A stretch of 64,000 bases of DNA from Acidimicrobiaceae bacterium (GCA_003159795.1 PLPK01000011.1:34064-98063), one strand, 5' to 3'. Positions 29,273 to 63,975 are shown, numbered from the stretch's first letter. Made by a program: numbers and translations. Notes: generated by a model from the sequence alone, not told the origin.

Positions 29273-29287
29273 TGGCTGGCGGGGGAG
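29273..29287. repeat. right copy of the 15-bp direct repeat (functional 3' end of tRNA-Gln)
   Basis: Identical to 27982-27996. It corresponds to tRNA positions from the T-stem 3' strand through CCA. Confidence 0.85.
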
Positions 29288-38425: not shown

Positions 38426-38822
38426 GGGAGGCAAGCTGACCGGCCGCGAGACGTGCCGGGCCAGCGGACGGGCCGGCGCGAAGGGGCACACTGGGGCCAC
38501 CGCCTTTCACGGCCCCGGCGCCCGACCGGTCTCCTGAAGGTTTCGGTCCCCGGCGGCCATGTAGTGGGTGATGAGCACCACCGCGGGTCGCCGATACCTG
38601 ATCCGCCCGACGTGTCGCAGCGCACCACCCGGTTCGAGGCGATCGACGACGCGCAGCACCGCGCGATCTCGGGCCACCTGCGCCGTCGGGTCGCCGGTGA
38701 CGACGCTGCCGACGTCCTCGCCGCACTCATCGGTGGCGCCACAGCCCGTCGCGGCCACCTCTGGAAATCCCGGCCCACACGATTCGCGAGACGGTAGCGT
38801 CGCGCGCCATGGAAGGGCCCCG

Positions 38823-41365: not shown

Positions 41366-41377
41366 CGCCGCCCGGGT

Positions 41378-42502: not shown

Positions 42503-42597
42503 AGGCTAGTAGGCGACCAGGCCGTCACGACCTCCGGATCTTCTGCACCTCAGGGCCGCCGCGCGGCGGCGACGGGAACGGCCGCGCGGGCCGGCCG

Positions 42598-43893: not shown

Positions 43894-44311
43894 GTGCCGT
43901 GTGGGTCGAGGGCACGTCCTCTGGGCCCCTCCAGGCGTCAGGCAGCAGGTCCCGCAGCAGGATCGGCGCCGACGCCTCGCCCTGGTCGAACAGCAGCCCG
44001 ACACTGCCGTGCTCGACGAGGAGCTGGCGGCAGCGCCCGCAGGGCGCGAGCGGCCGGCCGTCGCGGGCGACGACGCTCACGGCAATGAGATCCGCCTCTC
44101 CCGCGGCGGTGACGCTCGAGACGAGGCCGCACTCGGCGCAGAGCGTCAGGCCGTAGGAGGCGTTCTCCACATTGCAGCCGACGTAGATCCTGCCGGACGA
44201 GGTGAGCCCCGCGGCACCGACGTGCAGCCCCGAGTAGGGCGCGTAGGCGTTCTGTGCCGCCTGCACCGCCCGGGCACGCAGCTCGTTCCAGTCGATTGCG
44301 ATCCTCGCCAT
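43883..44311 (-). CDS. cdd: cytidine deaminase
   Basis: The zinc motifs CAECGLV and PCGRCRQLL are present. I preferred the ATG at 44311, 9 nt after GGAGGAG. The ORF is open to 44329. Confidence 0.9.
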   Translation of the reverse strand: MARIAIDWNELRARAVQAAQNAYAPYSGLHVGAAGLTSSGRIYVGCNVENASYGLTLCAECGLVSSVTAAGEADLIAVSVVARDGRPLAPCGRCRQLLVEHGSVGLLFDQGEASAPILLRDLLPDAWRGPEDVPSTHTARGD

Positions 44312-44497
44312 CCTGTGGCGCTCCTCCAACGGAACCCCCTCCCGTTGGGGGCGGACGCTACACCTCCGGGAGCGGGAAGGTTGCGGCCGGTCGCCAATTC
44401 CGCCTCGGGAACCACCAGCCCATGCCCTCGCCTCCGGTCCCCGTTCGCCGCCGAGGTGGTCGCGGCACCCGGCGCCCGCACCCGGCGCTATGGCCCC

Positions 44498-45790: not shown

Positions 45791-45836
45791 GGCCGTGCTC
45801 CCCGCCCGCCCCAGCGGCCAGCGGCCCGCCGCCCGC

Positions 45837-47123
45837 TCACGCCGCCCAGCCCCTCGTCAGAAGACCCTGGCCGACGTTCATGCCCCGCAACCGGTAGACC
45901 TCGTTGACGAGGCCGGGCGTGGCGACGAAGAACACAATGATCGCCTGGATGACCGAGGCGAGGTCGAGCGGGATCCCGGTCGACGCCTGCATGTAGCGCC
46001 CACCGACGTTCAGCGCGGCGAACAGCAGCGAGCCGAGCACGATGCCGATCGGGCGGTTCCGGCCCAGCAGCGCGACGGTGATGCAGTCGAAGCCGACAGT
46101 CCCGCCGTATCCCGCGGAGAGGAAGTAGTCCGACCCGCAGAGCGAGATCATCCCCGCCAGGCCCGCCAGGCCGCCCGAGATCACGAGCACGAGGATCGTC
46201 GCCCGGCGAACGTTGATCCCCGCGACCTTCGCCGCGTCCTGGTTCGCACCGACCACCCGGAAGCCGAAGCCGAGGGTGCCTCGCCGCAGCAACCAGGAGA
46301 CACCGAGCGCACAGGCGATGGCGATGAACACCCCCACGTTCACCCTCAGGTTCTGGCCGAAGATGTGGGGGAGCTCCGCGGACCCGAAGATCGTCCTGCC
46401 GACCGCGTTCGCCTGGTGCGGCTGCTGGAACGGCTGGGTCGTGAGCGCGAGGACTAACAGGTTCAGGAAGACGTAGTTGAGCATGATCGTGACGATCACC
46501 TCGTGCGCCCCGGTGCGCGCCTTCAAGAAACCCGGGATGAACCCCGCCACGGCGCCACCGGCGAACCCCGCGAGGATGCACAGCGGCACATGGATGATCG
46601 CCGGCGGGTCAATCTCGAAGCCCACGTAGCTCGCCGCCATCGCCCCGGCGATCAGCTGACCCTGCCCGCCGATGTTGAACATGCCGGTGCGGAAGCCGAG
46701 CCCGACGGCGAGTCCCGCGACGCAGAGCGGCGAGGCGTAGAGCAGCGTCTCGCTGAGCGGCGTGAGTGCCTGGCCCCAGCCGTGTCCCGTCGCGATGGCG
46801 TGGCCGATGACGAACGGGTCGCCGAGCGAGCCGGTGAACAGGTCGCGGTAGGCATCGCCGACCGTGAAGAACGTCACGCTCACCGTCGTGCCTGGGTGGC
46901 TGAAAAGAAGCGACCAGGCGTGGAGAACGTTCGCCTGGGTGGCGATGATGAGGACCGCGCCGACAAACAGGCCGCTGAAGATGGCGAGCGCCGTCACCAT
47001 GACGACGTTCGCCTCGACCATCCAGTGGAAGAAGCGGCTCCAACCCCGCGGAGCGTTCGCCTTGACAGGCGACGTGCTGGCCGGGGGTGCGGCCGCGGGG
47101 ACGGTGAATCCGGTGTCGCTCAC
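45837..47123 (-). CDS. ABC transporter permease (BMP/nucleoside importer, first TMD)
   Basis: A polytopic permease. Its start overlaps the ATPase stop by 4 nt. Confidence 0.85.
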   Translation of the reverse strand: MSDTGFTVPAAAPPASTSPVKANAPRGWSRFFHWMVEANVVMVTALAIFSGLFVGAVLIIATQANVLHAWSLLFSHPGTTVSVTFFTVGDAYRDLFTGSLGDPFVIGHAIATGHGWGQALTPLSETLLYASPLCVAGLAVGLGFRTGMFNIGGQGQLIAGAMAASYVGFEIDPPAIIHVPLCILAGFAGGAVAGFIPGFLKARTGAHEVIVTIMLNYVFLNLLVLALTTQPFQQPHQANAVGRTIFGSAELPHIFGQNLRVNVGVFIAIACALGVSWLLRRGTLGFGFRVVGANQDAAKVAGINVRRATILVLVISGGLAGLAGMISLCGSDYFLSAGYGGTVGFDCITVALLGRNRPIGIVLGSLLFAALNVGGRYMQASTGIPLDLASVIQAIIVFFVATPGLVNEVYRLRGMNVGQGLLTRGWAA

Positions 47124-48664
47124 TGCCCCGTCTCCACCCCGGTCTGCGACGACGCCGCGCCGTCACCGGTGACACCCGCCATCAAAAGCCCGATCCGCTC
47201 GCGCCCGACGGAGGGGCCGACGACGTCCATGATGGCGCCGCGGTAGATGACGGCGATCCGGTCGCCGAGGGCGAGCACCTCGTCGAGTTCCGAGGAGATG
47301 ATGACGACGGCCGCGCCACGGTCTCGCACCTCAACGATCCGTCGGTGAACGTACTCAATCGAGCCGACGTCGAGACCGCGGGTCGGCTGCGCCGCGACAA
47401 GCAGCGTCGTCTGCCGCGACAGCTCGCGGGCGACGATCACTTTCTGCTGGTTGCCACCCGACAACGTGGAGACGAGGACGTCGACGGAGCCCGCCCGGAT
47501 GTCGAAGTCGCTCATCCTCTCCTTCCCGCTGCACGCGACCTCGCGGAGGTTGCGCGCGCCGAGGCGCGCGTGGGGGGCGACGTCGAAGACGTCGAGGATG
47601 AGGTTGTCGGCGATCGTCATCGAGGTGACGAGGCCGTCGCGGATCCGGTCCTCGGGCACGTGGGCGATCCCGGCGCGCAGCCGCGCCTTCGGGGTCGCGC
47701 GTGTGATGTCCCGACCGAGGAGCGTGATCCGGCCCGCAGCCACCTCGATCAGGCCGCAGAGCGCCTCCTCGATCTCGGTCTGCCCGTTCCCCTGGACACC
47801 CGCGAGAGCGAGGATCTCCCCTCCGCGCACCTCGAAACTGACGTGGTCGACGACGGTCAGCCCACGTGCGTCCTCGACTGTCAGGTCCTCCACCGCGAGG
47901 ACCACTTCACCGGGCCGGGCCGGCTCCTTGTGAACCACGAGCTCGACCGACCGGCCGACCATCATCGAGGCGAGCTCGGACTCCGTCGTCGCCTGGGAGG
48001 TCGTCGTGCCGATCACCGCGCCGGCCCGCATGACGGTGATCCGATCGGCGACGGCGAGCACCTCCTTCAGCTTGTGCGTGATGAAAAGGATCGAGCGCCC
48101 CGACACCACGAGCGACCGCATGATCGCGAAGAGCGCCTCGGTCTCGTTGGGGGTTAGCACCGACGTGGGCTCGTCGAGGATGAGAAGCTGCGCGTCACGC
48201 GAGAGCGCCTTCAGGATCTCGACACGCTGCTGGACGCCGACGGGCAGGTCCTCGACGAGCGCATCCGGGTCGACCTCGAGGCCGAACTCCTGCGAGATCC
48301 GGTGGATGTCGGCCCTCGCCCGGCGTCGGTCGAGCAGACCGAAATGGCGGGTTGGCTCAAAGCCCAGCACGACGTTCTCCGCCACGGTGAACACCGGCAC
48401 GAGCATGAAGTGCTGGTGAACCATGCCGATGCCGTGGCGGACCGCGGCACCCGGGTCGGGGAAGTGGACGACCTCGCCGTCGAGCGCGATGTCGCCCGAG
48501 TCCGGGTGCATCAGCCCGAAAAGGACGTTCATGAGTGTCGTCTTGCCCGCGCCGTTCTCACCCAGGAGCGCGTGGATCTCACCGGGTTCGACCGTGAGGT
48601 CGACGTGGTCGTCTGCTACGAGGGATCCGAAGGTCTTCGTGATCCCCGACAACTCAAGCTTCAC
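47120..48664 (-). CDS. ABC transporter ATP-binding protein with two NBDs (sugar/nucleoside type)
   Basis: Walker A GENGAGKTT and Walker B LLILDEPTSVL in NBD1, plus LSGGNQQKV in NBD2. Confidence 0.9.
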   Translation of the reverse strand: MKLELSGITKTFGSLVADDHVDLTVEPGEIHALLGENGAGKTTLMNVLFGLMHPDSGDIALDGEVVHFPDPGAAVRHGIGMVHQHFMLVPVFTVAENVVLGFEPTRHFGLLDRRRARADIHRISQEFGLEVDPDALVEDLPVGVQQRVEILKALSRDAQLLILDEPTSVLTPNETEALFAIMRSLVVSGRSILFITHKLKEVLAVADRITVMRAGAVIGTTTSQATTESELASMMVGRSVELVVHKEPARPGEVVLAVEDLTVEDARGLTVVDHVSFEVRGGEILALAGVQGNGQTEIEEALCGLIEVAAGRITLLGRDITRATPKARLRAGIAHVPEDRIRDGLVTSMTIADNLILDVFDVAPHARLGARNLREVACSGKERMSDFDIRAGSVDVLVSTLSGGNQQKVIVARELSRQTTLLVAAQPTRGLDVGSIEYVHRRIVEVRDRGAAVVIISSELDEVLALGDRIAVIYRGAIMDVVGPSVGRERIGLLMAGVTGDGAASSQTGVETGQ

Positions 48665-48796
48665 GGCTACCTCGACCTTGCGACAGGCCGCCGGGCCCCC
48701 CTGGCCCGGCCGCCTGTCCGAGATGTCGTCAACTCTCCCGGTCCGTCACGGTCCGGGCCCGGGGACCCGGACCCGGACCGTGACCCGGGAAGCCGG

Positions 48797-49963
48797 CTAG
48801 CTGGCCGGGTAGGAGTCCGGGTCGATCGAGATCGTCCCCGCCTCGACCATCGACTTGATCTGGTTGAGCCCGTTCTGCAGGGCCTTCGGGATCACCTTGG
48901 CGAATTTGTGGTACGGCGACAGCGCGACGCCACCGTTCTTCAGCGTCCCGAAGTAGTTGCCGCCGTGGAACTTGCCGTGCACCGCCGAGAGCGCGGCGTT
49001 CTCCACCGATTTCACGATCCCCTTCGTCACGCTGGTGAGGAAGATGCTGCAGTCGCTCGGAACCGAGACGCAGCCGTCCGTGTCGACCCACTCCATCGTG
49101 ACGCCGTGGCCGTAGGCCTTCACCCCAGCCGCCGCACCGAGTCCGACCGAGCCCGCGACCGGGAAGATGACGTCGGCGCCGCGCTGGATGAGCGCCGACG
49201 CGTCGGTTCTGCCCGCCGCCTGGTTCGTGAACGAGTTGGTGAACGTGCCGGTCCCGTCGAAGCTGCCCTTGGGCCGGTTCTTCTTCGGGGTCCAACCGAG
49301 GGCGACGACGTGCTTGTGGTCGACCTTGTCGAAGTAGCGGACGCCGGCGACCCAGCCGTCCATGTAGATCGTGACGGTCGGGATGTCCTCACCACCAAAC
49401 GTGCCGACATAGCCGGTCGTGCTCATCGCGGCGGCGAGGAACCCTCCGAGGAAGGCGTCCTGGTTCGTGTCGTAGAGCAGCGAGTCGATGTTCTTGATCG
49501 GCGGCGAGTAGCTGTAGTCGACGATCGCGAAGTCCTGGTGCGGGTGGGCTTTCGCCGCGTTCTCGGTATCGGTTCCCATCAGGAAGCCGACCGTGATGAT
49601 GATGCCGCAGTGCAACCCGATGAACGTCTTGATGTTCGGCTCGTAGTCGCTCGCCGAGGTCGACGACAGGTACTGGATCCTCATCGACGGGTCCACAACC
49701 TTGGCATCCTCGAGGCCCTTCCAAGCCGAAGCGTTGAAGGAACGGTCGTTGATCCCACCGGTGTCGGTCACCTCGCAGGCGAGGAACGAGCCCTTGTGGC
49801 TCACCACCGCGGCCGCACGGTGGCGCGCCGTCGCGGTTGCCGAGGCGGCCCCGGTCGAGGCCACGCCCGCGACGAGTGCCAGCGCCGATAGGACGACAAG
49901 TGCCCGAACTCCCGGCATCCGCCGTTGACGAATCACGGGATCACTTAGACCATGAGAAACCAT
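48797..49963 (-). CDS. BMP-family (PnrA-like) nucleoside-binding protein, secreted
   Basis: BMP-family body (VTDTGGINDRSFNASAWKGLEDA..., FPVAGSVGLGAA) and a signal peptide (RALVVLSALALVAGVAS). I preferred the ATG at 49963, 5 nt after AAGGAGGG. The track ORF runs to 50152. Confidence 0.88.
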   Translation of the reverse strand: MVSHGLSDPVIRQRRMPGVRALVVLSALALVAGVASTGAASATATARHRAAAVVSHKGSFLACEVTDTGGINDRSFNASAWKGLEDAKVVDPSMRIQYLSSTSASDYEPNIKTFIGLHCGIIITVGFLMGTDTENAAKAHPHQDFAIVDYSYSPPIKNIDSLLYDTNQDAFLGGFLAAAMSTTGYVGTFGGEDIPTVTIYMDGWVAGVRYFDKVDHKHVVALGWTPKKNRPKGSFDGTGTFTNSFTNQAAGRTDASALIQRGADVIFPVAGSVGLGAAAGVKAYGHGVTMEWVDTDGCVSVPSDCSIFLTSVTKGIVKSVENAALSAVHGKFHGGNYFGTLKNGGVALSPYHKFAKVIPKALQNGLNQIKSMVEAGTISIDPDSYPAS

Positions 49964-50141
49964 TGGCCCTCCTTGAACTGGGTTCACATCGGCTGCGGTT
50001 GGCCGCGACTGATGGGCGTTCACCCGCCCGGGGGCCCTGTGACACCCGGACCGCAGCTGGTCGCCCCATCGCTGATACCGAACCGCTCTGCCCCTTGACG
50101 GGGGCGACGCTACCACCGCCCCGGCGCCGTGACCGGGGGAG

Positions 50142-50822
50142 ATGACGCACAAATCGGCCGCCCGCCCCGGGATCCCCGCGGCAAAGCGGCTGGCGCAGAT
50201 AGCCTCTGACTTGGTGATCGATCACATCCTCCTCGACGTCATCGGGGCGATCCGCGAGGCCCTTGAGGGGGCGCTCTTGGAGCAGCAGGCCGTCGAGGAG
50301 CGGTTCCAGATCGACGTCTTCCTCGGCGACGTCGCCTTCGAGACCTCGTTCTCGCTCCCGGGCGAGCAGAACCCCCCGCGGGTCCGCGCCGACCTCGGCC
50401 TCGAGTGGCCGACCTGGAGCCAGAGCGCCTACCGCTCGTGGTCGATCGGGGAGCCGACCTCGGAGCGCCCCGAGCTCGTGGTGGAGCTGACCCTGCGGCT
50501 CCAGCGCCTCGCCGCCGTCCCCGAACCGGCGGTTGTGCTCGCCGCCCTCGGCGAGAGCCGCCCCGAGATCGCCGGCGAGCCCCTGGAGCGCAGCGGCATC
50601 ACGGTCGAGCAGGCCTTCGACGCCGAGCCGGGCACGGCGACCTCGGCGATCGAGATCGCCTACCAGGGCACGTACAGGCTGAGCGAAACCGTCCTCGAGG
50701 AGCCCGAACGGCTGGACGGCCAGGTGGCGCCGCTCGCCCGCTGGATCGCCTCCGCTCTCGTGCGCCTCGCCGACCTCGAGCTGCCGTCGTCGCCGGTCGA
50801 CGACTCCGAGGCGAGCACGTAG
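50142..50822 (+). CDS. acidic hypothetical protein (226 aa)
   Basis: An uninterrupted frame with ordinary, non-Arg/Pro-biased composition and high GC3. I recognise no family. The start is uncertain because the SD abuts the ATG at 50142. Confidence 0.5.
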   Translation: MTHKSAARPGIPAAKRLAQIASDLVIDHILLDVIGAIREALEGALLEQQAVEERFQIDVFLGDVAFETSFSLPGEQNPPRVRADLGLEWPTWSQSAYRSWSIGEPTSERPELVVELTLRLQRLAAVPEPAVVLAALGESRPEIAGEPLERSGITVEQAFDAEPGTATSAIEIAYQGTYRLSETVLEEPERLDGQVAPLARWIASALVRLADLELPSSPVDDSEAST

Positions 50823-50834
50823 AGCCTGCCCGCC

Positions 50835-51890
50835 TCAGGCGACCCCCCGCGCCCGGGCGAGCTCGGCGAGGGACGACTCCGGCCGGGCACCGAGGTGGCT
50901 GATCACCTCGCTGGCCGCCAGCACGCCGAGACGCGCCGCCCCCTCGGGACCGTGGCCGTGGGTGACCCCGAAGCAGAATCCCGCCGCGAAGAGATCGCCG
51001 GCACCGGTCAGGTCGACGATCTGCCCGACCGGGTGGGCGGGCACCTCGACGGAGCCGTCGGCCAGCCCGAGCGCCACGCCCTTCTCGCCGAGGGTCACCG
51101 CCACGGTGAGCCCCGGACGGGAGGTCGCCTCGAGCGCGCGGGGAACGGCCCTTTGGCGGCTGAAAGCGAGGAGCTCGGCTTCGTTGGCGAACACGATGTC
51201 GACGGGTCCCGCGATGAGCCGCTCGAGGACGGGGCGGTGCCGCTCGACGAGGAGGGCGTCCGACAGCCCGAGGGCGATCGAGGCACCCCCGCCCCGGGCT
51301 GCGGTCACGAGCCGCTCGACGATCGCCGGCGCGTCGGGGAGGTCGAGAAGGTAGCCCTCGACGTAGACGAGCTGGGCGTCCCCCACGACCTCGGGGTCGA
51401 TCCCGGCCGAGTCGAGCCGGCCGCCGGCACCGAGGAAGGTCGCCATCGTCCGCTCGGCGTCCGGCGTGATGATCGCGGAGCACCGCCCCGTCGCCATCCC
51501 CGCACCTGAGGTGTCCGCCCGAAAGCGCTGCAGCACGGCGTGCACCCCGGCCGCCTCGAGGTCCGCCGCGAAGCGATCACCGAGGTCGTCGGTCGCCACC
51601 GCGCCGATGAAAGCCGGGTGTCCCCCAAGGGAGGCGACACCGACCGAGGTGTTCGTGGCCGTCCCGCCGGAGACCTGCCGACCCTCGCCGACGACCGCCC
51701 GGATCCTCTCGCTCGTCGCCCGGTCGACGAGCGTCATCGCGCCAAGCGGCAGCCCGAGTGACTCGATGACGGCTGCGGGAGCGAAGGCGAAGTGGTCCAC
51801 CAGGGCGTTGCCGACACAGACGACGTCGAAACGCTTGGAGGAATCGGGCAGGGGTGCTCCGCGCGAGCCACTCTCCCCTGTCACGCCCAA
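50835..51890 (-). CDS. PfkB-family carbohydrate/nucleoside kinase (adenosine kinase-like)
   Basis: FDVVCVGNALVDH at the N-terminus and the PfkB signature IVDLTGAGDLFAAGF near the C-terminus. Confidence 0.85.
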   Translation of the reverse strand: MGVTGESGSRGAPLPDSSKRFDVVCVGNALVDHFAFAPAAVIESLGLPLGAMTLVDRATSERIRAVVGEGRQVSGGTATNTSVGVASLGGHPAFIGAVATDDLGDRFAADLEAAGVHAVLQRFRADTSGAGMATGRCSAIITPDAERTMATFLGAGGRLDSAGIDPEVVGDAQLVYVEGYLLDLPDAPAIVERLVTAARGGGASIALGLSDALLVERHRPVLERLIAGPVDIVFANEAELLAFSRQRAVPRALEATSRPGLTVAVTLGEKGVALGLADGSVEVPAHPVGQIVDLTGAGDLFAAGFCFGVTHGHGPEGAARLGVLAASEVISHLGARPESSLAELARARGVA

Positions 51891-51959
51891 ACCCTACCGC
51901 CGGCGGGTTCGCCCGCCACCCGTGGAAGACATGCGAGCGTTGAGTAGCCTCGACGTGCT

Positions 51960-54582: not shown

Positions 54583-55227
54583 GTGAATCTCGGACTCGCG
54601 GCGGCGACCTTCGCCGTCGTGATCCCGGCGGAGCTGCCGGACAAGACCTTCATCTCCGCTGTCGTGCTCTCCTCGAGGCACCGGCCGCTCCCCGTGTGGC
54701 TCGGAGCGGCGACCGGCCTCGTCGCCCAGGCCGGCGTCGCCGTCGCCGCCGGCCGGCTCCTCGGGCTGGCACCGCACCGCGTCGTCGCCGCCATCGTCGC
54801 CGGGCTGTTCTTCGCCGGTGCCGCCTTCCTCTTTCTCGCCAAGGGCGCCGCCGTCGAGAGCCGCGGCGGCGAGATCGCCCGGGACGAGGAACGGCTCCTC
54901 ACGGCGGGCGACGACAACAGCCAGGCGGAGGTCCGGCCACACCGTCTTTCCGGGGCGCGGATCGCCGCCATCACCTTCGTGGTGGTCGCCCTCGCCGAGT
55001 TCGGCGACCTCACCCAGGTCGTGATCGCCAACCTCTCGGCGAGATCGCGAGACCCGCTCAGCGTGTTCTGCGGCGCGGCACTCGCCTTCGTCGTCGTGAG
55101 CGGCATCGGCGTCGCCGCCGGAAGGACGATCACGCGGGTGGTACCCCTCGACGCCGTCCGCAAGCTCTCCGCCCTGGTGCTCGTCGGCCTCGGCGTCTGG
55201 AGCGCCGTCGCGGCGGGCACGGGGTGA
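54583..55227 (+). CDS. UPF0016/GDT1 (TMEM165) family cation transporter
   Basis: Two copies of the family motif (ELPDKTFI and EFGDLTQV), each opening a three-TM half. GTG start 7 nt after the pepN stop. Confidence 0.8.
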   Translation: MNLGLAAATFAVVIPAELPDKTFISAVVLSSRHRPLPVWLGAATGLVAQAGVAVAAGRLLGLAPHRVVAAIVAGLFFAGAAFLFLAKGAAVESRGGEIARDEERLLTAGDDNSQAEVRPHRLSGARIAAITFVVVALAEFGDLTQVVIANLSARSRDPLSVFCGAALAFVVVSGIGVAAGRTITRVVPLDAVRKLSALVLVGLGVWSAVAAGTG

Positions 55228-55931
55228 CCGCCACCGATTTCCCCGCCGGCGGGCAGCCGCCGGACGGGCACGCCGAGCGGTCGGCGGCGCTGCTCGGCGC
55301 GGCGCTGACGACGAGGGGGTTCCTGCCCGACGACGAGGCGATGGCCTTGTACGCCGTCGCGGTCCGTGCGGCTGCGAGCGCTTGCGGACCCCTCGTGGAG
55401 ATCGGCGCCTATCTCGGCCGGTCGACGCTCTGTCTCGCCGCGGCCCTCGCCGCCGTCGACACAGCCGGTCCCGTCGTCTACAGCGTCGACCACCACCACG
55501 GGTCCGAGGAGATGCAGGCCGGTTGGCCCGATCACGACCCCTCGCTCGTCGACCCGGGAACCGGCCGGATGGATTCGCTGGCGGCCTGGCGCGAGGCGAT
55601 CGAACGGGCGGGGGCGGAGGATCTCGTCGTCGCGGTGGTCGGCGACTCGGCACGCGTCGCCGCCAACTGGTCGACTCGCGCCGCCCTCGTCTTCGTCGAC
55701 GGCGGCCACGGCGCCGTCCCCTGCTGGGCGGACTACCGGGGCTGGGCCCGCCACGTGGTGGTGGGGGGCTTCCTCGTCTTCCACGACGTTTTCGCCGATC
55801 CCACCCAGGGCGGGCGACCGCCCTACGAGTGCTACCTCGACGCCCTCGGCTCGGGCCGCTTCACCGAGGACGCCGCGGCGGGTTGGGGCAGCCTGCGGGT
55901 GCTCGTCCGCACATCGCTGCCGTGGGGCTGA
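55224..55931 (+). CDS. class I SAM-dependent methyltransferase (Methyltransf_24 / family-3 O-MT-like)
   Basis: LVEIGAYLGRSTLCLAAAL...LVFVDGGH...GGFLVFHDV is the typical layout. The GTG at 55224 overlaps the upstream stop (GTGA). It forms the tail of the implausible 411-aa track ORF 54696..55931. Confidence 0.75.
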   Translation: MTATDFPAGGQPPDGHAERSAALLGAALTTRGFLPDDEAMALYAVAVRAAASACGPLVEIGAYLGRSTLCLAAALAAVDTAGPVVYSVDHHHGSEEMQAGWPDHDPSLVDPGTGRMDSLAAWREAIERAGAEDLVVAVVGDSARVAANWSTRAALVFVDGGHGAVPCWADYRGWARHVVVGGFLVFHDVFADPTQGGRPPYECYLDALGSGRFTEDAAAGWGSLRVLVRTSLPWG

Positions 55932-55946
55932 GAGCCCGCCGACGCG

Positions 55947-56960
55947 TCAGCCCAGGGGGGTGAAGATGGCCGCGGCGGCGCCCCCGGCGAGCACGTCGGC
56001 CGCCAGCACGACCGCCGCCGCCGAGTACGTCGTGCGCTCGCCGGCGGGGAACTCGGACCGCTCCGGGTAGACGAGGCCCGTCCGGTACGAGCCGTCGTCG
56101 CTGCGCAGGTCGTCCGTCGTCGCCAGTAGCGCCCAGGCCTTTTCGCGCCAGCCGACCCGGGCGAGCGCGACGGCGCACTCGGCGGTCTCGGCCGTGGTCA
56201 CCCAGCGCCTGTCCGAGCGGCACAGCACCCCGCGGGTCGGCGGGACGAACTCCCGGCGGCGTTGCGCCAGGCGCTTCCGGGCGGCGTCGAGTCCGAGCAC
56301 CCCGGCGAGGGCCGGGTAGTACCAGTCCATCGCGAACTGCGAGTTGTCGGCGAAGAACGTCTCGCGCTCGGCGACGAGCCGGCCGACACGGGCGGCGGCG
56401 GCCTCCCACCCGGGGCGCTCGAGGCCGAGCGAGGCCGCGAGGCGGACGCCCGACGACAGGCTCTGGTAGATCGACGAGCTCGCCGCCAGGAGCGAGAACG
56501 CAGCGGGGCACCCACCGGGCTCGATGGACCACGGGATCGCGCCGCTCGGCGCCGTTGTCGCCACGACGAAGCCGAGGGCGCGCTCGACCACGGCGAACAT
56601 CTCCCCGGCGAAACCGGCGTCGCCCCCCGCCAGGAGGTACTCGAGGACACCGGTCGCGACGTAGGCGACGCCGTTCGTGTCGATGCGCCGCTCCTCGACG
56701 CATCCGTCACCCGAGTAGTAGGCGTGCCAACTCCCGTCGGCGCGCTGTGTGCAGGCGAGCCACTCGAGGGCCGCCTCCGCGGCGGCCAGCTCGCCCGCCG
56801 AGCACAGCGCCATTGCCGCCTCGACGTGGTTCCACGGGTCGGCGTGGCCGCCCGGGAACCACGGGATCATGCCGGAATCGAGCTGGGTCGCGAGGATCGT
56901 GGCAACAGTCGGCCCCACATCGACGAGGTCGACCGCCTCCTCGGCGAGCACGTCCGCCAT
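55947..56960 (-). CDS. alpha/alpha-toroid protein (prenyltransferase/terpene-cyclase-like repeats)
   Basis: It has DGSW/DGSY-type repeats (TQRADGSWHAYY, SDDGSYRTG) and a helical-repeat character. The ATG at 56960 overlaps the upstream methyltransferase stop (ATGA). The remainder of track ORF 55947..58013 is an out-of-frame extension. Confidence 0.7.
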   Translation of the reverse strand: MADVLAEEAVDLVDVGPTVATILATQLDSGMIPWFPGGHADPWNHVEAAMALCSAGELAAAEAALEWLACTQRADGSWHAYYSGDGCVEERRIDTNGVAYVATGVLEYLLAGGDAGFAGEMFAVVERALGFVVATTAPSGAIPWSIEPGGCPAAFSLLAASSSIYQSLSSGVRLAASLGLERPGWEAAAARVGRLVAERETFFADNSQFAMDWYYPALAGVLGLDAARKRLAQRRREFVPPTRGVLCRSDRRWVTTAETAECAVALARVGWREKAWALLATTDDLRSDDGSYRTGLVYPERSEFPAGERTTYSAAAVVLAADVLAGGAAAAIFTPLG

Positions 56961-57673
56961 CAGGCGGCCTTCTCGGCGTAGAGGACGAGGCTCTTGCCGA
57001 TGAGCGGGTTGAGCATCCGCTCGACGGCACGCGTCACAAAAGGACGCCGCGTGATGTCCCAGACGAGCAGACGGTGGTAGGCCGCGACGAGCGGATGTTC
57101 CTCGCGGTCCACGCCGATGGCGCAGCGCAGCAACCAGTACGGCGAGTGGAGGGCGTGGGCATGGTGCGATGCGACCACCACCAGACCGGCGTGCTCGCAC
57201 CGCCGGACGAGCTCGCGTTTGGCGTAGATGCGGACATGCCCGCCCTCGACCTCGTGGTAGGCGGCCGACAGTGCCCAGTTCGCCCGCTCGGGACCGGCGG
57301 CCGGGACGCTCAGTGCCGCCAGTCCACCGGGCCGCAGCACCCGCGCGACCTCGGCGATCGCCGCCTCGTCGTCGACGACGTGCTCGAGCACCTCCGAGGC
57401 GATCACCCGGTCGAAACTCGAGTCGGCGAACGGGAGACAGGTCAGGTCGCCGACCACGCCGCCTGAGCGCGTGCCCGGCGGCACCTCGCCGGCGCCGCGC
57501 ATCGCGCCCACCATGGCCCCGACGGCGTCGATCTCGGACCGTTGCGCGTCGAGCGAGACGACGTGGGCACCGGCCTTCAGGCAGGCGAAGGTGTGGCGCC
57601 CGTGCCCGCACCCCACGTCGAGCACGCACATCCCCGGGACGATCGCCGCCCGGCCGAGGTCGACGGTCAGCAC
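56960..57673 (-). CDS. class I SAM-dependent methyltransferase
   Basis: Motif I VLDVGCGHGRH, post-I VVSLD, and FDRVIASEVLEHV. The GTG start overlaps the GT4 gene's 3' end by 7 nt. Confidence 0.85.
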   Translation of the reverse strand: MLTVDLGRAAIVPGMCVLDVGCGHGRHTFACLKAGAHVVSLDAQRSEIDAVGAMVGAMRGAGEVPPGTRSGGVVGDLTCLPFADSSFDRVIASEVLEHVVDDEAAIAEVARVLRPGGLAALSVPAAGPERANWALSAAYHEVEGGHVRIYAKRELVRRCEHAGLVVVASHHAHALHSPYWLLRCAIGVDREEHPLVAAYHRLLVWDITRRPFVTRAVERMLNPLIGKSLVLYAEKAA

Positions 57674-58929
57674 CGCTGCTCCCCGATGCCGGCCCGGTAC
57701 TCCCCGGCGGTCGCCGCCGCGACTCGGTCCCAGCCGAAGCGGGCGAGCCCGGGCCCGTCGAGGATCCGGGCGACGGCGGCGGCGAGGGCGCCGGGGTCAC
57801 CCGGCGGGACGGCGAGCGCGGCGACGCCGTCGGGGCCGACGACCTCGGGCAGTGCGCCACCGGTCGTCGCGACGAGCGGCACGCCGCACGCCATCGCCTC
57901 GATGGCCGGGAGCGAGAAGCCCTCGTAGAGCGAAGGGACCACGGCGACGCAGGCCTCCGCATAGCGCTCGGCGAGACGGCGGTCGGGCTCGCCCCCGACG
58001 AAGCGCACCGCACTTTCCAGCCCGAAGCGCGCGATGGCCGCCGTCACCGGGCTCGCGCCACGGGGTTGCCCGACGACGACGAGGTGGGCGTCCTCGCGCT
58101 CGGTGCGGAGCTTGGCGAGCGCCTCGAGCAGGTAGACGAGCCCCTTGAGCGGCACGTCGGCGCTCGCTGTCGTCATGATCCGTCCCGGGACCCGGTGGAC
58201 GCCGGCGAACGGGCGCCAGCAGGCGGTGTCGACCCCGAGCGGGATGACGGCGATCCTGTCCGGCGCGACGCCCATCTCCTTGACGATGTCGCGCCGCGAG
58301 GACTCCGAGACGGTAATGACGCGCCCGAGCCGGCCCGCGACCCGGTTCTGCATCGCCGCGAACCCGTACCAGCGTCGCAGCGAGACGGCCCGCGCCGTTC
58401 CCCGCGCCGCCGCGAGGTCGAGTCGGCGGTCGATCGTGACGGGGTGATGGATCGAGGCGACGATCGGCCAGCCCTCGGCCTGCATGCGAAGCAGCCCCGT
58501 GCCGAGGCCCTGGTTGTCGTGCACGACGTCAAACTCATCCCGGCGCCCCGCGAGCGCCGCCCGCGCCCGCCACGAGAAGGTCCGCGGCTCGGCGAAGCCC
58601 CCGGTCCACATCGTCGCCAGCTCGAGGGCGTCGACGGCCGAGGTGATCTCACGGGCCCGCGGGCGGCGGAACGGGTCCGGCTCCCGGTACAGGTCCAGGC
58701 TCGCAACCGGCGTGAAGTCCACGCCCGCGTCGAGCTCCGGGTACGGCTGGCCAGCGAACACCGTCACGCGGTGGCCCGCCGCGACGAGGGCGCGCGAAAG
58801 GTGCCGTGTGTAGACCCCCTGCCCGCCACAGCGCGGGTTGCCCCGGTAGACAAGGAAGGCGACCCGCAGGGAACCGCTATCGGTGCCGGCGCGACCCGAC
58901 GCCCGTGCGGGTGGGTGGCCGGACGTCAC
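57667..58929 (-). CDS. GT4-family glycosyltransferase
   Basis: RVAFLVYRGNPRCGGQGVYTRHL at the N-terminus and a C-terminal GT1 domain (PSLYEGFSLPAIEAMACGVPLVAT). I preferred the GTG at 58929, 9 nt after GGGGGAGG. The ORF is open to 58971. Confidence 0.85.
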   Translation of the reverse strand: MTSGHPPARASGRAGTDSGSLRVAFLVYRGNPRCGGQGVYTRHLSRALVAAGHRVTVFAGQPYPELDAGVDFTPVASLDLYREPDPFRRPRAREITSAVDALELATMWTGGFAEPRTFSWRARAALAGRRDEFDVVHDNQGLGTGLLRMQAEGWPIVASIHHPVTIDRRLDLAAARGTARAVSLRRWYGFAAMQNRVAGRLGRVITVSESSRRDIVKEMGVAPDRIAVIPLGVDTACWRPFAGVHRVPGRIMTTASADVPLKGLVYLLEALAKLRTEREDAHLVVVGQPRGASPVTAAIARFGLESAVRFVGGEPDRRLAERYAEACVAVVPSLYEGFSLPAIEAMACGVPLVATTGGALPEVVGPDGVAALAVPPGDPGALAAAVARILDGPGLARFGWDRVAAATAGEYRAGIGEQRC

Positions 58930-58975: not shown

Positions 58976-60619
58976 TCAATGCTGACCGAGGCCGAGCTCG
59001 ACCGCCTTCACAACCAGGAGCCCGACCGCGATGGCGAGGTAGCCCCACATCGCCACCATCGTCGCCTTGCGTCCCCGCGAGAGCACCGGCGGGGCGAGCA
59101 GCGTCAGGAGAGGCATCCGCCAGTTCTCGCGCTGGGCCGGCGTCGGGGGCGGCTCGTCCGGGTACTCACGGCGGGAACGGACGCGCCAGCCGAGCACGGC
59201 GGCGACGAGCCCGCCCCCGACGAGCACGGCACCGAGGAGCGAGATGACGAACATCACGTTGATGTGCGGGAAGACGGTCGTCGTCATCAAGATGAGCGAG
59301 AGAGCGACGAGCACCGAGACAATCAGGCCGGCAACCACGTTCAGCCAGAGCTTGTTGACCCAGGGACCGAGCACCTCGCGGTCATTACAGAGCAGCACGA
59401 GGAAGACCGTCGCGCTCGGGAGCAGCACGCCCGCCAGCGCCTGGACCGCCATCGTGATGAGCCCGAGGGGGGCGCGCGGGATGAGCACGACCCCCGCGGC
59501 GACGAAGACGAGCGCCGAGTAGGTCGTGTAGAAGGCTTTCGCGTCGGCCACGCGGCGGTGCAGCGAGTGCTTCATCGAAAACATGTCGCCGACGGCGTAC
59601 GACGTCGCCAGGGTCACCGCCGCGGCGCCGATGATCGAGGCGTTGAGCAGCACGATCGAGAACAGTGTCCCGGCGCTGTTGCCGAGGTAGTGCTCGAGAC
59701 CCCGGGCGACCCCCGCGGCGTTCGTGAAGTGGCCCGCCAGCGGCGTGTGCCCGAAGGCGAAGGCCGCCGTGACGACGATGAGGGTCGCGGCGAAGACCGT
59801 GACGAGCGAGCCGAGGATGGTGTCAGTGCGCTCGTAGTTGATCCAGCGCGGCGTGATCCGCTTGTCGACGATGTTCGACTGCTGGAAGAACAGCTGCCAG
59901 GGCGCGACGGTCGTGCCGACGATGGCGATGATGAGCAGGATCGCCGTCGAGCTCACCCCGCCCCGCACTCCGGGGATGAGCAGCCCGTGGACGACCGGGC
60001 CGATGTGGGGGTGCGAGAAGACGACGAGCGGGATGACGAGGAAGTTCGCCACGACGAACAGCAGCATGAAACGTTCCCAGCGCCGGAAGCTCCCCGACGT
60101 CGTCATCGCCACGAGGCCGACCGCCGCGATCGGCACCGAGATGTACGGACTCACACCGAAGTAGCCGAGCGCCAGGCTGATCCCGATGAACTCGGTCACG
60201 ATGGTTAAGAAGTTGAGGACGAACAGGTCTCCGACCGAGAACGCCCCCCAGAACCGACCGAAGCGCTCGTTGATGAGGCGGGCGTGCCCGACGCCGGTCA
60301 CCGCGCCGAGCCGGACGACCATCTCCTGGTTGACGATGAGCACGGGGATGAGGAGCGGCAGGGTCCACAGCAGTGTGAGCCCGAAGTTCTGCCCGGCCTG
60401 CGCGTACGTCGCGACGCCACCAGCGTCGTTGTCGCCGACCATGACGATGAGGCCGGGACCGACGATCGCGGCCAGCGTGAGCAGGCGCGAGAGAACCGAC
60501 CGGCGTGCGCCGGTGTCACCGACACTGATCGTGCCGAGGGCACCCCGGATGTCTCCGATGTGCGCCTCGTCGAGGACGGCGGACCTGCCCTCTTCGTATG
60601 CATGGTCGCGACTGGCCAT
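58976..60619 (-). CDS. NRAMP-related transporter with NRMT-type (putative Mg2+) binding-site residues
   Basis: NRAMP fold. TM1 reads VGDNDAGGVATYAQAG where canonical MntH has DPGN. TM6 reads IVGTTVAPWQLFF where canonical has GATVMPH. The result is D/G/T/A instead of D/N/A/M. The ATG at 60619 lies 8 nt after GGGAGG. An M-box lies upstream. Confidence 0.85.
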   Translation of the reverse strand: MASRDHAYEEGRSAVLDEAHIGDIRGALGTISVGDTGARRSVLSRLLTLAAIVGPGLIVMVGDNDAGGVATYAQAGQNFGLTLLWTLPLLIPVLIVNQEMVVRLGAVTGVGHARLINERFGRFWGAFSVGDLFVLNFLTIVTEFIGISLALGYFGVSPYISVPIAAVGLVAMTTSGSFRRWERFMLLFVVANFLVIPLVVFSHPHIGPVVHGLLIPGVRGGVSSTAILLIIAIVGTTVAPWQLFFQQSNIVDKRITPRWINYERTDTILGSLVTVFAATLIVVTAAFAFGHTPLAGHFTNAAGVARGLEHYLGNSAGTLFSIVLLNASIIGAAAVTLATSYAVGDMFSMKHSLHRRVADAKAFYTTYSALVFVAAGVVLIPRAPLGLITMAVQALAGVLLPSATVFLVLLCNDREVLGPWVNKLWLNVVAGLIVSVLVALSLILMTTTVFPHINVMFVISLLGAVLVGGGLVAAVLGWRVRSRREYPDEPPPTPAQRENWRMPLLTLLAPPVLSRGRKATMVAMWGYLAIAVGLLVVKAVELGLGQH

Positions 60620-60858
60620 GCTCGATCGACCTCCCGCAGATTCGGGTTTGGCGGACGTTGCTTTCTGGTCGCGCACGTCCGCGGGCGGCCGGTCCGGATC
60701 ACCGAACCCTTCGGTTCACCTCGTCAGAGACGTGCGCCTTCTTCGTTCAGACGAACGTTTATCGGCGCTCAGGGGTTCTCCCTAGTCGTGCCCAAGCTCC
60801 AGTCGGCGTGGGTGGAGTCCGTTGGGCACGGACCGCCGCGGCGAACGCCCCGGCGCAC

Positions 60859-61016
60859 CCCTCTCGTCAGAGCTTTGGCGCCCGCCGCCGTAGGCCCGAG
60901 GGCCAGCCACTTCGGACGATCCCTTGTGCCGGGAAAGTCTGTCCTGACCCGGAGTGTCTTTCGACAGGTGGGGTCAGTGGCCTCTGTGCGACGAGCCGCC
61001 TCACCGAACGAGGTGC
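60859..61016 (-). promoter_or_regulatory. M-box (ykoK-type) Mg2+-sensing riboswitch aptamer
   Basis: The minus strand reads CUCGUUCGGUGAGGC...GUCGAAAGACACUCCGGGUCAGGACAG...CAAGGGAU...GCCAAAGCUCUGACGAG. These blocks parallel the conserved M-box blocks CGUUAGGUGAGGC, GUCCAAAGACGCUAAUGGGUCAACAG, AAGGUGAU and GCUAAAGCUCUACGA. P1 closes as CUCGU/ACGAG. The aptamer is about 158 nt and lies about 240 nt upstream of the transporter ATG. A TANNNT hexamer (TAACAT, 61033-61038) sits just upstream. Confidence 0.8.
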
Positions 61017-61125
61017 GACTGCTTGCACCGGGATGTTACCCGCGGGGCGCGGGGCGCTCCAGGGTTCGGACGGAACTCCCGGCGCCCCGTCCCGCCGCGC
61101 CGTGCGGCGGCCAAAGGGCTCGAGT

Positions 61126-62715: not shown

Positions 62716-63975
62716 CTACTCCTCGGCCGTCGTCATCCCGAAGTCGCGCCGCCACCCCGTGGGGAGGAGCAACTCGAGCACGTCGTCCACGGTGACGACG
62801 CCGATCATGCGGTGGTCCTCGTCGACGACGGGTGCCGTCGAAAGGTTGAAGTCCGACATCTTGCGCACGATCGCGTGGATGTCCGCGTCGGCGCGCACCG
62901 TCACGGGGTCGCGCTCGGCGATCGAGGAGAGCTTGGCCTGGGGGGAGACCTTGAGCAGCCGCACGACCGAGACCGTCCCAGCGATCCGTCCTTCGGGGTC
63001 GGCCGTGTACACCATCGCGAGCGCCTCGGGGGCGATGTCGCTCCGGCGGATCGCCTCCAGCGCCTCGCCCGCGGTCGTCGTGGCGGCGAGTGAGAGGAAG
63101 TCCGGGTTCATCAACCCGCCGCCGGTCTCCGGGTTGTAGCTGAGCAGCCGGCGTACCTTGGCCTGCTGTCGAGCGGGAAGCGCCTCGAGGACAGCGAGGC
63201 GGCGGTCCTGATCGAGATCGTTGATGAGATCCGCCGCATCGTCAGGCGCCATCGTCGCGAGCACGCGGGCCGCTTCGGCGTCGGAACGGGACTCGAGGAA
63301 CTCCCGCTGGTGCTCGGGGTCGAGCTCCTCGAAGACGTCGGCCTCGAGCTCCCGATCGAGGCTCACCGCCTCGATGATCTCCTCGCCCTCCTCGTGGGAG
63401 GCCGCCTCGACGAGATCGGCGATCTGCGCCGGACGCAGGCGGGAGAGCTTGCGCAGCGGGATCCGCATCCGCGCCGTCGGCACGTGGGCGACGAATGGCT
63501 CGATGCTGCCCCAGTCGACGAGCGACTTCGTCCGGATCCGGCGGGCGAGGCGCCGCGGCATGAGACGCCGCATCACGCCCCGTCCCGAGGGGTCGACGCC
63601 GACCACCTGCCAGACCCCGTCGGTCTCGGCGAGCTCGATCTCGTTGGCGCGGATGAGGTGCGCGCCGACGACGTGGATGAGATGGCGCGCCTGGAGATCG
63701 CGGGCCAGCAGCAACTCGCCGGGCCGACGTTCGAAACGGCCGAGCTCAAGCGTCACCCCGATCAGCTGCACGAACCGCGGTCGCATCGATTCGATCCGGT
63801 CGATCGGGATGAACAGCTCCCGTCCGGCGACGCGGGCGACGAGTCCGGTGATCGGCGGGTGCGACTGTCCGGCGAGCCGGACGATCAGGTCCTCGACCCG
63901 CCCGATGCGTTCCCCCGCCGGGTCGAGGAGCGGGCTTCTGATGAGCGCCGAGAGGTGGAGGAACTCAGGGGACAT
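62716..63975 (-). CDS. PRC-barrel / MgtE N-terminal domain / tandem-CBS protein lacking the MgtE membrane domain
   Basis: The N-terminus is PRC-like (LLDPAGERIGRVEDLIV...GRELFIPIDRI). It is followed by MgtE_N-like acidic helices (EEIIEAVSLDRELEADVFEELDPEH..., APDDAADLINDLDQD) and then a CBS pair (ETGGGLMNPDF...VVDEDHRMIGVVTVDDVLELL). The protein ends about 20 aa later with no TM segments. Confidence 0.8.
   Translation of the reverse strand: MSPEFLHLSALIRSPLLDPAGERIGRVEDLIVRLAGQSHPPITGLVARVAGRELFIPIDRIESMRPRFVQLIGVTLELGRFERRPGELLLARDLQARHLIHVVGAHLIRANEIELAETDGVWQVVGVDPSGRGVMRRLMPRRLARRIRTKSLVDWGSIEPFVAHVPTARMRIPLRKLSRLRPAQIADLVEAASHEEGEEIIEAVSLDRELEADVFEELDPEHQREFLESRSDAEAARVLATMAPDDAADLINDLDQDRRLAVLEALPARQQAKVRRLLSYNPETGGGLMNPDFLSLAATTTAGEALEAIRRSDIAPEALAMVYTADPEGRIAGTVSVVRLLKVSPQAKLSSIAERDPVTVRADADIHAIVRKMSDFNLSTAPVVDEDHRMIGVVTVDDVLELLLPTGWRRDFGMTTAEE

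Follow-up and report, generated by a model that had tools for sequence, protein, structure and literature searches.

A probable methylmannose polysaccharide gene cluster in an uncultured Acidimicrobiales bacterium

Genes and junctions at the locus

The window, i.e., the whole stretch of DNA analyzed, is 64,000 nt and comes from an uncultured Acidimicrobiales bacterium found in peat metagenomes. It contains a GT4 glycosyltransferase gene, a class I SAM methyltransferase gene, a gene for an alpha-alpha toroid protein and a gene for a second methyltransferase of the Methyltransf_24 type, all at the coordinates first described for them (Table 1). The first three are on one strand and the fourth converges on them. 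The stop codons of the toroid and Methyltransf_24 genes are separated by 15 bp (positions 55932–55946), which agrees with the gap given in the earlier note.

Table 1. Positions of the genes and the RNA element discussed in the text
Feature	Position	Strand	Match or remark
GDT1/UPF0016 cation transporter	54583-55227	+	PF01169, E 2.6e-35
Methyltransf_24 protein (MeT1-like, putative reducing-end 1-O-methyltransferase)	55224-55931	+	PF13578, E 4.9e-19
Toroid protein (MmpH-like (alpha/alpha)6 putative endo-alpha-(1->4)-mannosidase, Asn50/Tyr315 subtype)	55947-56960	-	7QSJ
Class I SAM methyltransferase (pMeT3-like, putative mannose 3-O-methyltransferase)	56960-57673	-	PF08241, E 6e-20; PF13489
GT4 protein (ManT-like, predicted alpha-(1->4)-mannosyltransferase)	57667-58929	-	PF13439/PF00534
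Nramp-related (NRMT-type) transporter	58976-60676	-	PF01566; directly upstream of ManT
M-box (Mg2+) riboswitch	60852-61019	-	RF00380; leader of the transporter gene

The three genes on the minus strand had been described as chained by overlapping stop and start codons. The 7-nt overlap of the first junction stands: the sequence GTGCTGA holds the GT4 stop and the methyltransferase start. The second junction had been given as ATGA and is in fact TGATG, where the methyltransferase stop and the toroid start share 1 nt; the genes are nevertheless coupled. The longest open reading frame of the GT4 gene begins with a GTG at position 58971. Its start is likely the GTG at 58929, which has a GGAGG 7 nt upstream. 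A scan for promoters and terminators gave no promoters and two terminator-like sites, compared with 1.2 expected. By inspection, none of the four proteins has a signal peptide or a membrane segment, and their product should therefore be cytoplasmic. No NCBIfam model reaches its cut-off for any of the four.

Relation of the four proteins to MMP enzymes

The resemblance to the methylmannose polysaccharide (MMP) clusters of mycobacteria that had been noted for this locus proves to be homology. The best PDB matches of three of the proteins are the M. hassiacum enzymes ManT (7QSG), MmpH (7QSJ) and MeT1 (6G7D), and the fourth protein has 51% identity to pMeT3. Compared with a Mycolicibacterium cluster (locus L085, reached via homologues of a 7QSJ fragment), the four proteins pair one-to-one at 44–51% identity over nearly their full lengths, with E values from 9e-59 to 7e-131. 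Published mycobacterial MMP clusters are M. hassiacum MHAS_04402-04405, M. smegmatis MSMEG_6481-6484 and M. avium MAV_2755-2758 (Maranha et al. 2023, PMC9883506).

The GT4 protein matches 7QSG with an E value of 3.4e-122, by far its best PDB match; the next chain is at 1.7e-20 and MshA at about 2e-15. Identity to the Mycolicibacterium ManT is 51% over 406 aa (BLASTP, E 7e-131). A calibration is provided by Streptomyces griseus, which makes an acetylated MMP and whose ManT is 53% identical to that of M. hassiacum; the GT4 protein, at 51%, lies at the same distance from mycobacterial ManT. Residues G15, H142, K240, D293, E313, G314, F315, L317 and E321 of ManT are all kept. These include K240, E313 and E321, which are important by mutagenesis, and D293, the guanine contact. 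The sole change among the ManT residues compared is at L291, a main-chain contact, which is Glu in the GT4 protein. There are also about 20–34 extra residues at the N-terminus relative to mycobacterial ManT.

The class I methyltransferase aligns with the Mycolicibacterium pMeT3 over 237 of 237 aa (51% identity, E 3e-88). The two share an MLTVD N-terminus and occupy the same slot between the ManT and MmpH genes. In mycobacteria too, pMeT3 (MSMEG_6483/MHAS_04403) is a putative MMP 3-O-methyltransferase. Natural MeT3-MmpH fusion proteins occur. One further candidate, P0388, appeared to be a ManT-MeT3-MmpH triple fusion but is an out-of-frame artefact with an Arg/Pro-rich sequence.

The best PDB methyltransferase for the class I protein is a D-glucose O-methyltransferase (6UV6), at only E 9e-11, and GT4 enzymes with SAM methyltransferases also build the 6-O-methylglucose lipopolysaccharide (MGLP). 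That the cluster represents an MGLP-type methylglucose pathway and not a methylmannose one is nonetheless highly improbable, as the ManT match is about 100 orders of magnitude above that of any other PDB GT4 and the match to pMeT3 is far stronger than that to 6UV6. MmpH and MeT1 are not known to have a counterpart among the MGLP genes.

The Methyltransf_24 protein has M. hassiacum MeT1 (6G7D) as its sole PDB match (E 4.1e-55) and is 51% identical to the Mycolicibacterium MeT1. In an analysis of 63 family sequences, M. hassiacum included, it has 38 positions that are kept in at least 97% of the family, among them DHH.GSEE, DGGH and HDVF.

The toroid protein carries the repeats noted earlier, DGSW at residue 75 and DGSY at residue 289. 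Many of its homologues are named accordingly by NCBI, e.g., 'prenyltransferase/squalene oxidase repeat-containing protein', and some match PF13249, in line with the automatic annotation that had been anticipated. If it were a prenyltransferase or terpene cyclase, the cluster would make a glycosylated, methylated isoprenoid. The two motifs are QW-like and there are weak PDB matches to cyclases (E 0.0035–0.14), but the protein has no Pfam match at E<=0.01 and no DDxxD or DxDD motif. The match to 7QSJ is by far the best in the PDB (E 4.5e-74), and endomannosidase activity of this solved homologue has been proven by experiment. An AF2 model (pLDDT 93.8) has 7QSJ as its top Foldseek match, with a TM score of 0.92 and an rmsd of 1.5 Å; glycosidases and sugar epimerases score about 0.7, and terpene synthases, drimenyl diphosphate synthase among them, about 0.55. 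The comparison of glycoside hydrolase-like and prenyltransferase-like sites that the earlier note had proposed thus comes out on the hydrolase side, with the catalytic base kept. The isoprenoid reading is effectively refuted, and the chance that it is correct is negligible. A further, weak match in NCBIfam, to the 'oligosaccharide amylase' model TIGR01577 (E 1.4e-5), scores 23.9 bits, far below the cut-off of 820.7.

The toroid protein has the features of the MmpH family: the (alpha/alpha)6 barrel, the base Glu262 with Glu265, and the candidate acid Asp47 (E258, E261 and D41 in its own numbering). MmpH W49, N101, M215 and Y219 are kept as well. The Glu to Ala variant of MmpH (E262/E265) is inactive. 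Four subsite residues differ (D50 to N44, F102 to G97, T163 to A159 and W315 to Y312), so that cleavage could follow another pattern or act on another substrate. The first of these gives DPWNH in place of the mycobacterial DPWDH, and the mycobacterial Trp315 is at the -1 subsite. The protein consequently falls outside the mycobacterial-type subfamily, which is defined by Asp50 and Trp315. Asp and Trp occupy these positions in 120/120 mycobacterial homologues, whereas the Asn50/Tyr315 form is seen in 119/120 and 114/118 Acidimicrobiia-type homologues. Nonomuraea MmpH, which served as a proxy for that of Streptomyces in the comparison of position 50, likewise has Asn50 and Tyr315. The mycobacterial D50A variant retains about 29% activity, which indicates that Asp50 is not strictly essential and that an Asn need not change the reaction. 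Published mutagenesis left the choice of catalytic acid open; the Asn at position 50 in the non-mycobacterial homologues examined favors Asp47. Representatives at 50% identity were also sorted by regular expression, a crude procedure that left 77 of 150 unclassified. Few organism names are present among the cluster members; those seen are Thermodesulfobacteriota, Desulfovermiculus and Acidimicrobiales.

Synteny and flanking genes

Synteny was compared in the best 80 GTDB species loci, almost all labelled Acidimicrobiia and none from mycobacteria. Among these best 80 loci, all 79 that are testable have the MeT3 gene immediately upstream of the toroid gene, on its strand, and all 73 that are testable for the GT4 gene have it upstream of MeT3. 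The position of the Methyltransf_24 gene is more variable: in 43/80 loci it is convergent within 400 bp, in 18 it is likewise convergent but lies further downstream, and in three it has another place in the locus. The gene arrangement is not chance. Carrier lineages are from peat, soil, marine and sponge-associated sources and include Microthrix from activated sludge.

A relic state of the genes, decaying or silent, is very unlikely. All four frames are intact and full length, and GC3 in the ManT and pMeT3 frames (0.87–0.91) is within the range of neighboring genes (0.89–0.92). The identical toroid protein sequence is present on contigs in 39 blocks, with neighbors 85–100% identical in the four shown, and synteny is kept across the 80 species of the best 80 loci.

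The cultured species Ilumatobacter nonamiensis has the ManT-MeT3-MmpH trio, followed by an acyltransferase gene at the place where MeT1 sits in the peat bacterium. In 10 of the best 80 loci, MeT1 is absent from a downstream flank of at least 1 kb. These two observations, with the Asn50/Tyr315 form of MmpH in place of the mycobacterial Asp/Trp and the two further subsite changes, would fit a system in which the same four families make a different polymer, e.g., a methylated mannan that differs in length, methylation or acylation, comparable to the acetylated MMP of Streptomyces, or one with a role other than the fatty-acyl-CoA buffering proposed for mycobacteria. This is considered unlikely, although it is given some weight. 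All donor-site residues of ManT are kept, the guanine contact included, conservation of MeT1 and pMeT3 equals that of ManT, the cluster in the window has no acyltransferase, and the residual activity of D50A argues that Asn50 need not alter the reaction.

The Nramp-related transporter gene ends 46 nt before the GTG at 58929, and it is possibly co-transcribed with ManT. The best PDB match of the transporter is the 7QIA group (E 3.4e-61, compared with about 1e-14 for MntH). The M-box in its leader matches the Rfam model over the full length and scores 120 bits, where the gathering score is 44. The transporter-ManT layout is seen elsewhere only in the closest relative (L005), where an M-box is also present. 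On the other side, the GDT1 stop overlaps the MeT1 start (GTGA), and GDT1 is just upstream of MeT1 in L005, L006, L012, L062 and L083 as well. No GDP-mannose supply genes were found in the window, and no fatty-acid, GDP-mannose or MGLP genes are among the neighbors examined.

A more speculative scheme, which we regard as doubtful, is that MMP-type polysaccharides are an old trait of the Actinomycetota as a whole, with the Asn50/Tyr315 MmpH as the common form, and that in the peat lineage ManT, pMeT3 and MmpH are read from the M-box together with the Nramp-related Mg2+ transporter, so that turnover would respond to Mg2+. If true, magnesium-linked regulation and a physiological role would be new for MMP.

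Proposed pathway and comparison with known systems

The best explanation is that the four genes represent an orthologous copy of the gene cluster for MMP in an uncultured Acidimicrobiales bacterium, to which we assign a probability of roughly 0.75. The product is most likely an intracellular 3-O-methylmannose polysaccharide, as judged by analogy. MMP is a cytoplasmic chain in which 11–14 units of 3-O-methylmannose are joined by alpha-(1->4) linkages and the aglycon is 1-O-methyl, and ManT transfers mannose from GDP-Man onto alpha-(1->4)-oligomannosides that have 3 or more units. What the enzymes do here, which sugar and linkage the polymer has and what role it plays are inferred; at 44–51% identity the specificity of the four enzymes can drift. 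In the proposed pathway, ManT would extend alpha-(1->4)-oligomannosides with GDP-mannose as donor, pMeT3 would 3-O-methylate the added mannoses, and MeT1 would methylate the reducing-end 1-OH. MmpH would then cut the mature polymer internally to give oligomers that may serve as primers for new chains, a step that corresponds to the published 'partially conservative replication' model.

The literature treats MMP as a mycobacterial polymer that has an acetylated counterpart in Streptomyces. It is proposed to act as a long-chain acyl-CoA buffer for the mycobacterial lipid envelope, possibly with a part in cold adaptation. The expectation that such a polymer is not yet reported for this lineage holds within the papers searched, none of which joins methylmannose or polymethylated polysaccharides with Acidimicrobiia or Microthrix. 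Maranha et al. 2023 (PMC9883506) have Acidimicrobiia-labelled homologues among the automatically collected alignment sequences of their supplement, and the main text carries no comment on them. IMG names at least one protein of the Asn50/Tyr315 subtype 'MMP endo-(1,4)-3-O-methyl-alpha-D-mannosidase'. The system is of a known kind; what the cluster extends, to a distant actinobacterial class, is the distribution of a polymer supposed to be mycobacterial. An intact syntenic cluster in at least 80 species-level loci implies a much wider occurrence of the polymer, or of a close variant, and also a function independent of mycolate biology. Hundreds of proteins annotated as 'prenyltransferase' or 'hypothetical protein' are probably endomannosidases. 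With I. nonamiensis as a cultured carrier, the MMP prediction is directly testable.

Of the known systems, the GH15 glucoamylases and glucodextranases and the GH125 exo-alpha-1,6-mannosidases (clan GH-L) have the (alpha/alpha)6 barrel and the inverting-type Glu base in common with the toroid protein, but only 10–16% identity and a TM score of about 0.7, compared with 0.92 for MmpH. MGLP, with the genes Rv3030-Rv3032, is likewise a polymethylated polysaccharide of the cytoplasm for which a GT4 enzyme works with SAM methyltransferases, but its sugar is a different one.

The acetylated MMP of S. griseus also belongs to a non-mycobacterial actinobacterium, whose homologous genes are similarly distant. 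Streptomyces is in the class Actinomycetes and its product is chemically known; the Streptomyces polymer is acetylated, and no acetyltransferase is visible in the Acidimicrobiales cluster. Nonomuraea gerenzanensis has all four genes, as does the Acidimicrobiales cluster. The mycobacterial MMP cluster differs in its host, Mycobacteriales as opposed to the class Acidimicrobiia, and the identity to it is just 44–51%. The flanks differ also, with cation transporters and an M-box riboswitch here and TetR and P450 genes in Mycolicibacterium. The ManT catalytic and donor-site residues, the MmpH fold, base and Asp47, and the MeT1 invariants are common to both, and the Mycolicibacterium cluster has the same order of GT4, methyltransferase and MmpH on one strand with a convergent MeT1, and the same 7-nt overlap between the GT4 and methyltransferase genes.

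Gene layout and protein identity

The four genes lie at the coordinates claimed by the earlier note, in a 64-kb window with a G+C content of approximately 70% (see table). The longest open reading frame of the GT4 gene extends to position 58971, and a GGAGG sits 7 nt upstream of the GTG at 58929. The earlier note also described a chain of overlapping stop and start codons. Direct reading of the junctions shows the 7-nt overlap of the GT4 stop and the methyltransferase start (GTGCTGA), but the methyltransferase/toroid junction reads TGATG, with an overlap of 1 nt, instead of ATGA. The convergent stops of the toroid and Methyltransf_24 genes are indeed 15 bp apart, and both DGSW and DGSY are found in the toroid protein.

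Features of the cluster and its flanks, with BLASTP comparison to the cluster in Mycolicibacterium locus L085
Feature	Position	Strand	Remarks	Identity	Aligned	E value
GDT1/UPF0016 cation transporter	54583-55227	+	stop overlaps MeT1 start at 55224 (GTGA)			
Methyltransf_24 protein (MeT1-like)	55224-55931	+		51%	203 aa	9e-59
Toroid protein (MmpH-like)	55947-56960	-	337 aa, without Pfam match	44%	308 aa	1e-79
Class I SAM methyltransferase (pMeT3-like)	56960-57673	-		51%	237 aa (full length)	3e-88
GT4 glycosyltransferase (ManT-like)	57667-58929	-		51%	406 aa	7e-131
Nramp-family transporter	58976-60676	-	best PDB match 7QIA group E 3e-61 vs MntH 1e-14			
M-box (Mg2+) riboswitch, RF00380	60852-61019	-	full-length, 120 bits; ahead of Nramp-family gene			

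Enzymes of the methylmannose polysaccharide (MMP) pathway of M. hassiacum are the top PDB matches of three of the proteins by very large margins. The toroid protein matches 7QSJ, "methylmannose polysaccharide hydrolase MmpH", at E 4.5e-74, with a cyclase second at E 0.0035. The GT4 protein matches 7QSG, which is ManT according to Maranha et al. (PMC9883506), at E 3.4e-122; the second match is at E 1.7e-20, and MshA/PimA are at 1e-15 to 1e-11. The sole PDB match of the Methyltransf_24 protein is to the MeT1 entries 6G7D/6G80/6H40 (E 4.1e-55). The class I methyltransferase has no MMP counterpart among its PDB matches (best 6UV6, E 9e-11), and the reference for this fourth protein was the Mycolicibacterium chromosome locus L085 (GCA_002762075.1). 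In this locus GT4, methyltransferase and MmpH genes are collinear with MeT1 convergent, and the GT4/methyltransferase overlap is likewise 7 nt. BLASTP pairs the proteins of the two clusters one to one. The proposed resemblance to ManT, MeT3, MeT1 and MmpH is thus borne out by both types of search.

Residues described by Maranha et al. (PMC9883506) were transferred by mapping to the window proteins. ManT retains G15, H142, K240, D293, E313, G314, F315, L317 and E321; its sole difference among the mapped residues is at L291, a main-chain contact. Across 63 MeT1 sequences, that of M. hassiacum among them, 38 positions reach a conservation of at least 97%, e.g., DHH.GSEE, DGGH and HDVF.

Fold and catalytic residues of the toroid protein

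The AlphaFold2 model of the toroid protein (pLDDT 93.8, pTM 0.92) superimposes on 7QSJ with a TM of 0.92 and an rmsd of 1.5 Å. The next-best structures are (alpha/alpha)6 glycosidases and sugar epimerases/isomerases at TM ~0.7, with terpene synthases at only ~0.55. On the question whether the protein is hydrolase-like or prenyltransferase-like, the model points to a glycoside hydrolase. A prenyltransferase or terpene cyclase was rejected on this low TM and on the lack of DDxxD and DxDD motifs in the sequence; NCBI names the homologues "prenyltransferase" or "hypothetical protein".

The window MmpH retains D47, W49, N101, M215, Y219, E262 and E265, and has the substitutions D50 to Asn, F102 to Gly, T163 to Ala and W315 to Tyr. 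The D47A and D50A variants have ~34% and ~29% residual activity and the Glu-to-Ala variant has none (PMC9883506). Asp47 may act as the general acid, judging from the sequences, with position 50 aiding sugar binding. Asn and Tyr at positions 50 and 315 are found in 119 of 120 nearest homologues, in 114/118 proteins matched by an Acidimicrobiia profile, and also in Nonomuraea gerenzanensis MmpH (HVDAWNH, with Tyr at 315), while Asp and Trp are present throughout the 120 nearest homologues of M. hassiacum MmpH. Among 50%-identity representatives with a readable motif, Asn is present in 55 vs Asp in 17. By sequence, the window protein is a member of the MmpH family that falls outside the mycobacterial subtype because of its Asn/Tyr state. 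Clustered at 50% identity, the family comprises 183 clusters at a cut-off of E<=1e-30 and 786 at E<=1e-10. In IMG, the label MMP endomannosidase has already been given to at least one Asn50-type protein.

Distribution and flanking genes

Metagenome contigs of ENA and JGI samples encode the exact toroid protein, and the 130.6-kb scaffold WOOD18-1_SAMN07125052 is the longest of them; the nearest named homologues are from "Acidimicrobiales bacterium" MAGs. In a scan with each GTDB species represented by a single genome, a relative was encoded in at least 595 stretches. The best 80 of these are almost throughout from Acidimicrobiia: Acidimicrobiaceae, Microthrixaceae including Ca. Microthrix, Ilumatobacteraceae, Iamiaceae, Aquihabitans, and the sponge-associated Ca. 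Poriferisocius and Poriferisodalis. Within these 80, MeT3 is directly upstream of MmpH in 79/79 testable loci and ManT upstream of MeT3 in 73/73. A convergent MeT1 lies within 400 bp in 43 loci and at a greater distance downstream in 18; in 3 it has another place in the locus, and in 10 it is missing from a flank of at least 1 kb. Two metagenomic proteins, P0244 (606 aa) and P0251 (590 aa), are natural MeT3-MmpH fusions with both domains full and differing linkers of 30–40 residues, which supports a functional coupling. A further candidate, P0388 (1005 aa), is apparently an artefact of an out-of-frame reading.

The closest locus among those listed, L005 from an Acidimicrobiaceae MAG, has the whole neighbourhood in common with the window at 73–91% amino-acid identity. 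The cultured species Ilumatobacter nonamiensis (strain YM16-303) has ManT-MeT3-MmpH at 47–51% identity. In its locus (GCA_000350145.1, L088:6036-7997), MmpH is followed on the same strand by an acyltransferase (PF01553) and an MFS transporter in place of a convergent MeT1, a hint of an acylated variant. About 2 kb further on, the contig stops. A complete, unannotated cluster is present in the 10.96 Mb region of NZ_LT559118.1, an 11.85-Mb Nonomuraea gerenzanensis replicon listed as a "plasmid" in PLSDB with 10 annotated features. Five loci with the same cluster (L019, L036, L037, L061 and L067; MmpH 47–50% identity) are in MAGs labelled Verrucomicrobiales, Acidobacteria/Acidobacteriota or Chthoniobacterales, as a result of either mis-binning or of transfer. 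Some more remote members of the family are assigned by name to Thermodesulfobacteriota and Desulfovermiculus.

Acidimicrobiia are a separate class within Actinomycetota, the window proteins have about the same distance to Mycolicibacterium (44–51% identity) as to Nonomuraea (41–54%), and GC3 in the reading frames of ManT and pMeT3 is inside the range of neighbouring genes. Taken together, these properties argue against a recent transfer from mycobacteria.

The Nramp-family transporter has NDAGG and TTVAPW instead of the canonical DPGN and MPH, which we take to be the mark of Nramp-related Mg2+ transporters, and it is probably one of these. The distance from its stop codon to the ManT start, which is on the same strand, is 46 nt; read-through from the Mg2+-controlled leader may therefore lead to co-transcription of the three MMP genes with the transporter. 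The riboswitch-transporter-ManT layout may also be a local accident, since among 11 loci tested it recurs only in L005. Mg2+ stimulates ManT activity approximately five-fold in vitro; a link to the M-box riboswitch is speculative. The arrangement of PepN, GDT1 and MeT1 is also present in L005, L006, L012, L062 and L083. A 419-aa protein encoded at 62716-63975 (-) has MgtE_N and CBS domains and no match to the MgtE membrane domain; its gene is the third Mg/cation-related gene in 10 kb.

Elsewhere in the window, an IS481-type transposase gene (rve, LZ_Tnp_IS481; 28061-29212, +) adjoins tRNA-Gln(TTG) at 29273-29348 (-), and the stretch of lowest G+C (26-28 kb, 63%) borders this site. A nucleoside salvage and uptake block at 38565-51893 appears unrelated to the MMP genes. 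It encodes a purine nucleoside phosphorylase-like protein, adenosine deaminase, pyrimidine nucleoside phosphorylase, two permeases, an ABC ATPase, a Bmp/PnrA-type binding protein and a PfkB kinase.

Proposed cycle and known systems

In mycobacteria, ManT extends alpha-(1->4)-oligomannosides with a minimum length of 3 units, with GDP-mannose as donor, pMeT3 has a presumed role in 3-O-methylation, and MeT1 methylates free reducing ends. MmpH cleaves mature MMP to tetra/penta- and hepta/octa-mers that prime daughter chains. A deletion mutant of mmpH lacks MMP and grows more slowly at 15 °C. The window cluster would carry out the same cycle of elongation, methylation, cleavage and priming. This is the best-supported reading, because all four components are conserved together with the tested catalytic residues of ManT and the MmpH base, and secretion signals are not evident in the four proteins. 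The homology is demonstrated; the activities, the product and its role would follow by analogy.

In their main text, Maranha et al. deal with mycobacteria and eight related Actinomycetes and cite homologues of MmpH in Corynebacterium, Rhodococcus, Streptomyces and Nocardia; Acidimicrobiia do not occur there (PMC9883506). Their supplement has Acidimicrobiia-labelled and some proteobacteria-labelled homologues among automatically collected alignment sequences, including the list before the legend of Fig. S7 (MmpH ConSurf). Within the collection of papers searched, none links Acidimicrobiia or Microthrix to methylmannose or to polymethylated polysaccharides. The finding widens the range of the system to the class Acidimicrobiia as a whole and offers a testable organism. 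Streptomyces griseus, whose ManT is 53% identical to that of M. hassiacum and which produces an acetylated MMP, serves as a calibration for the window cluster.
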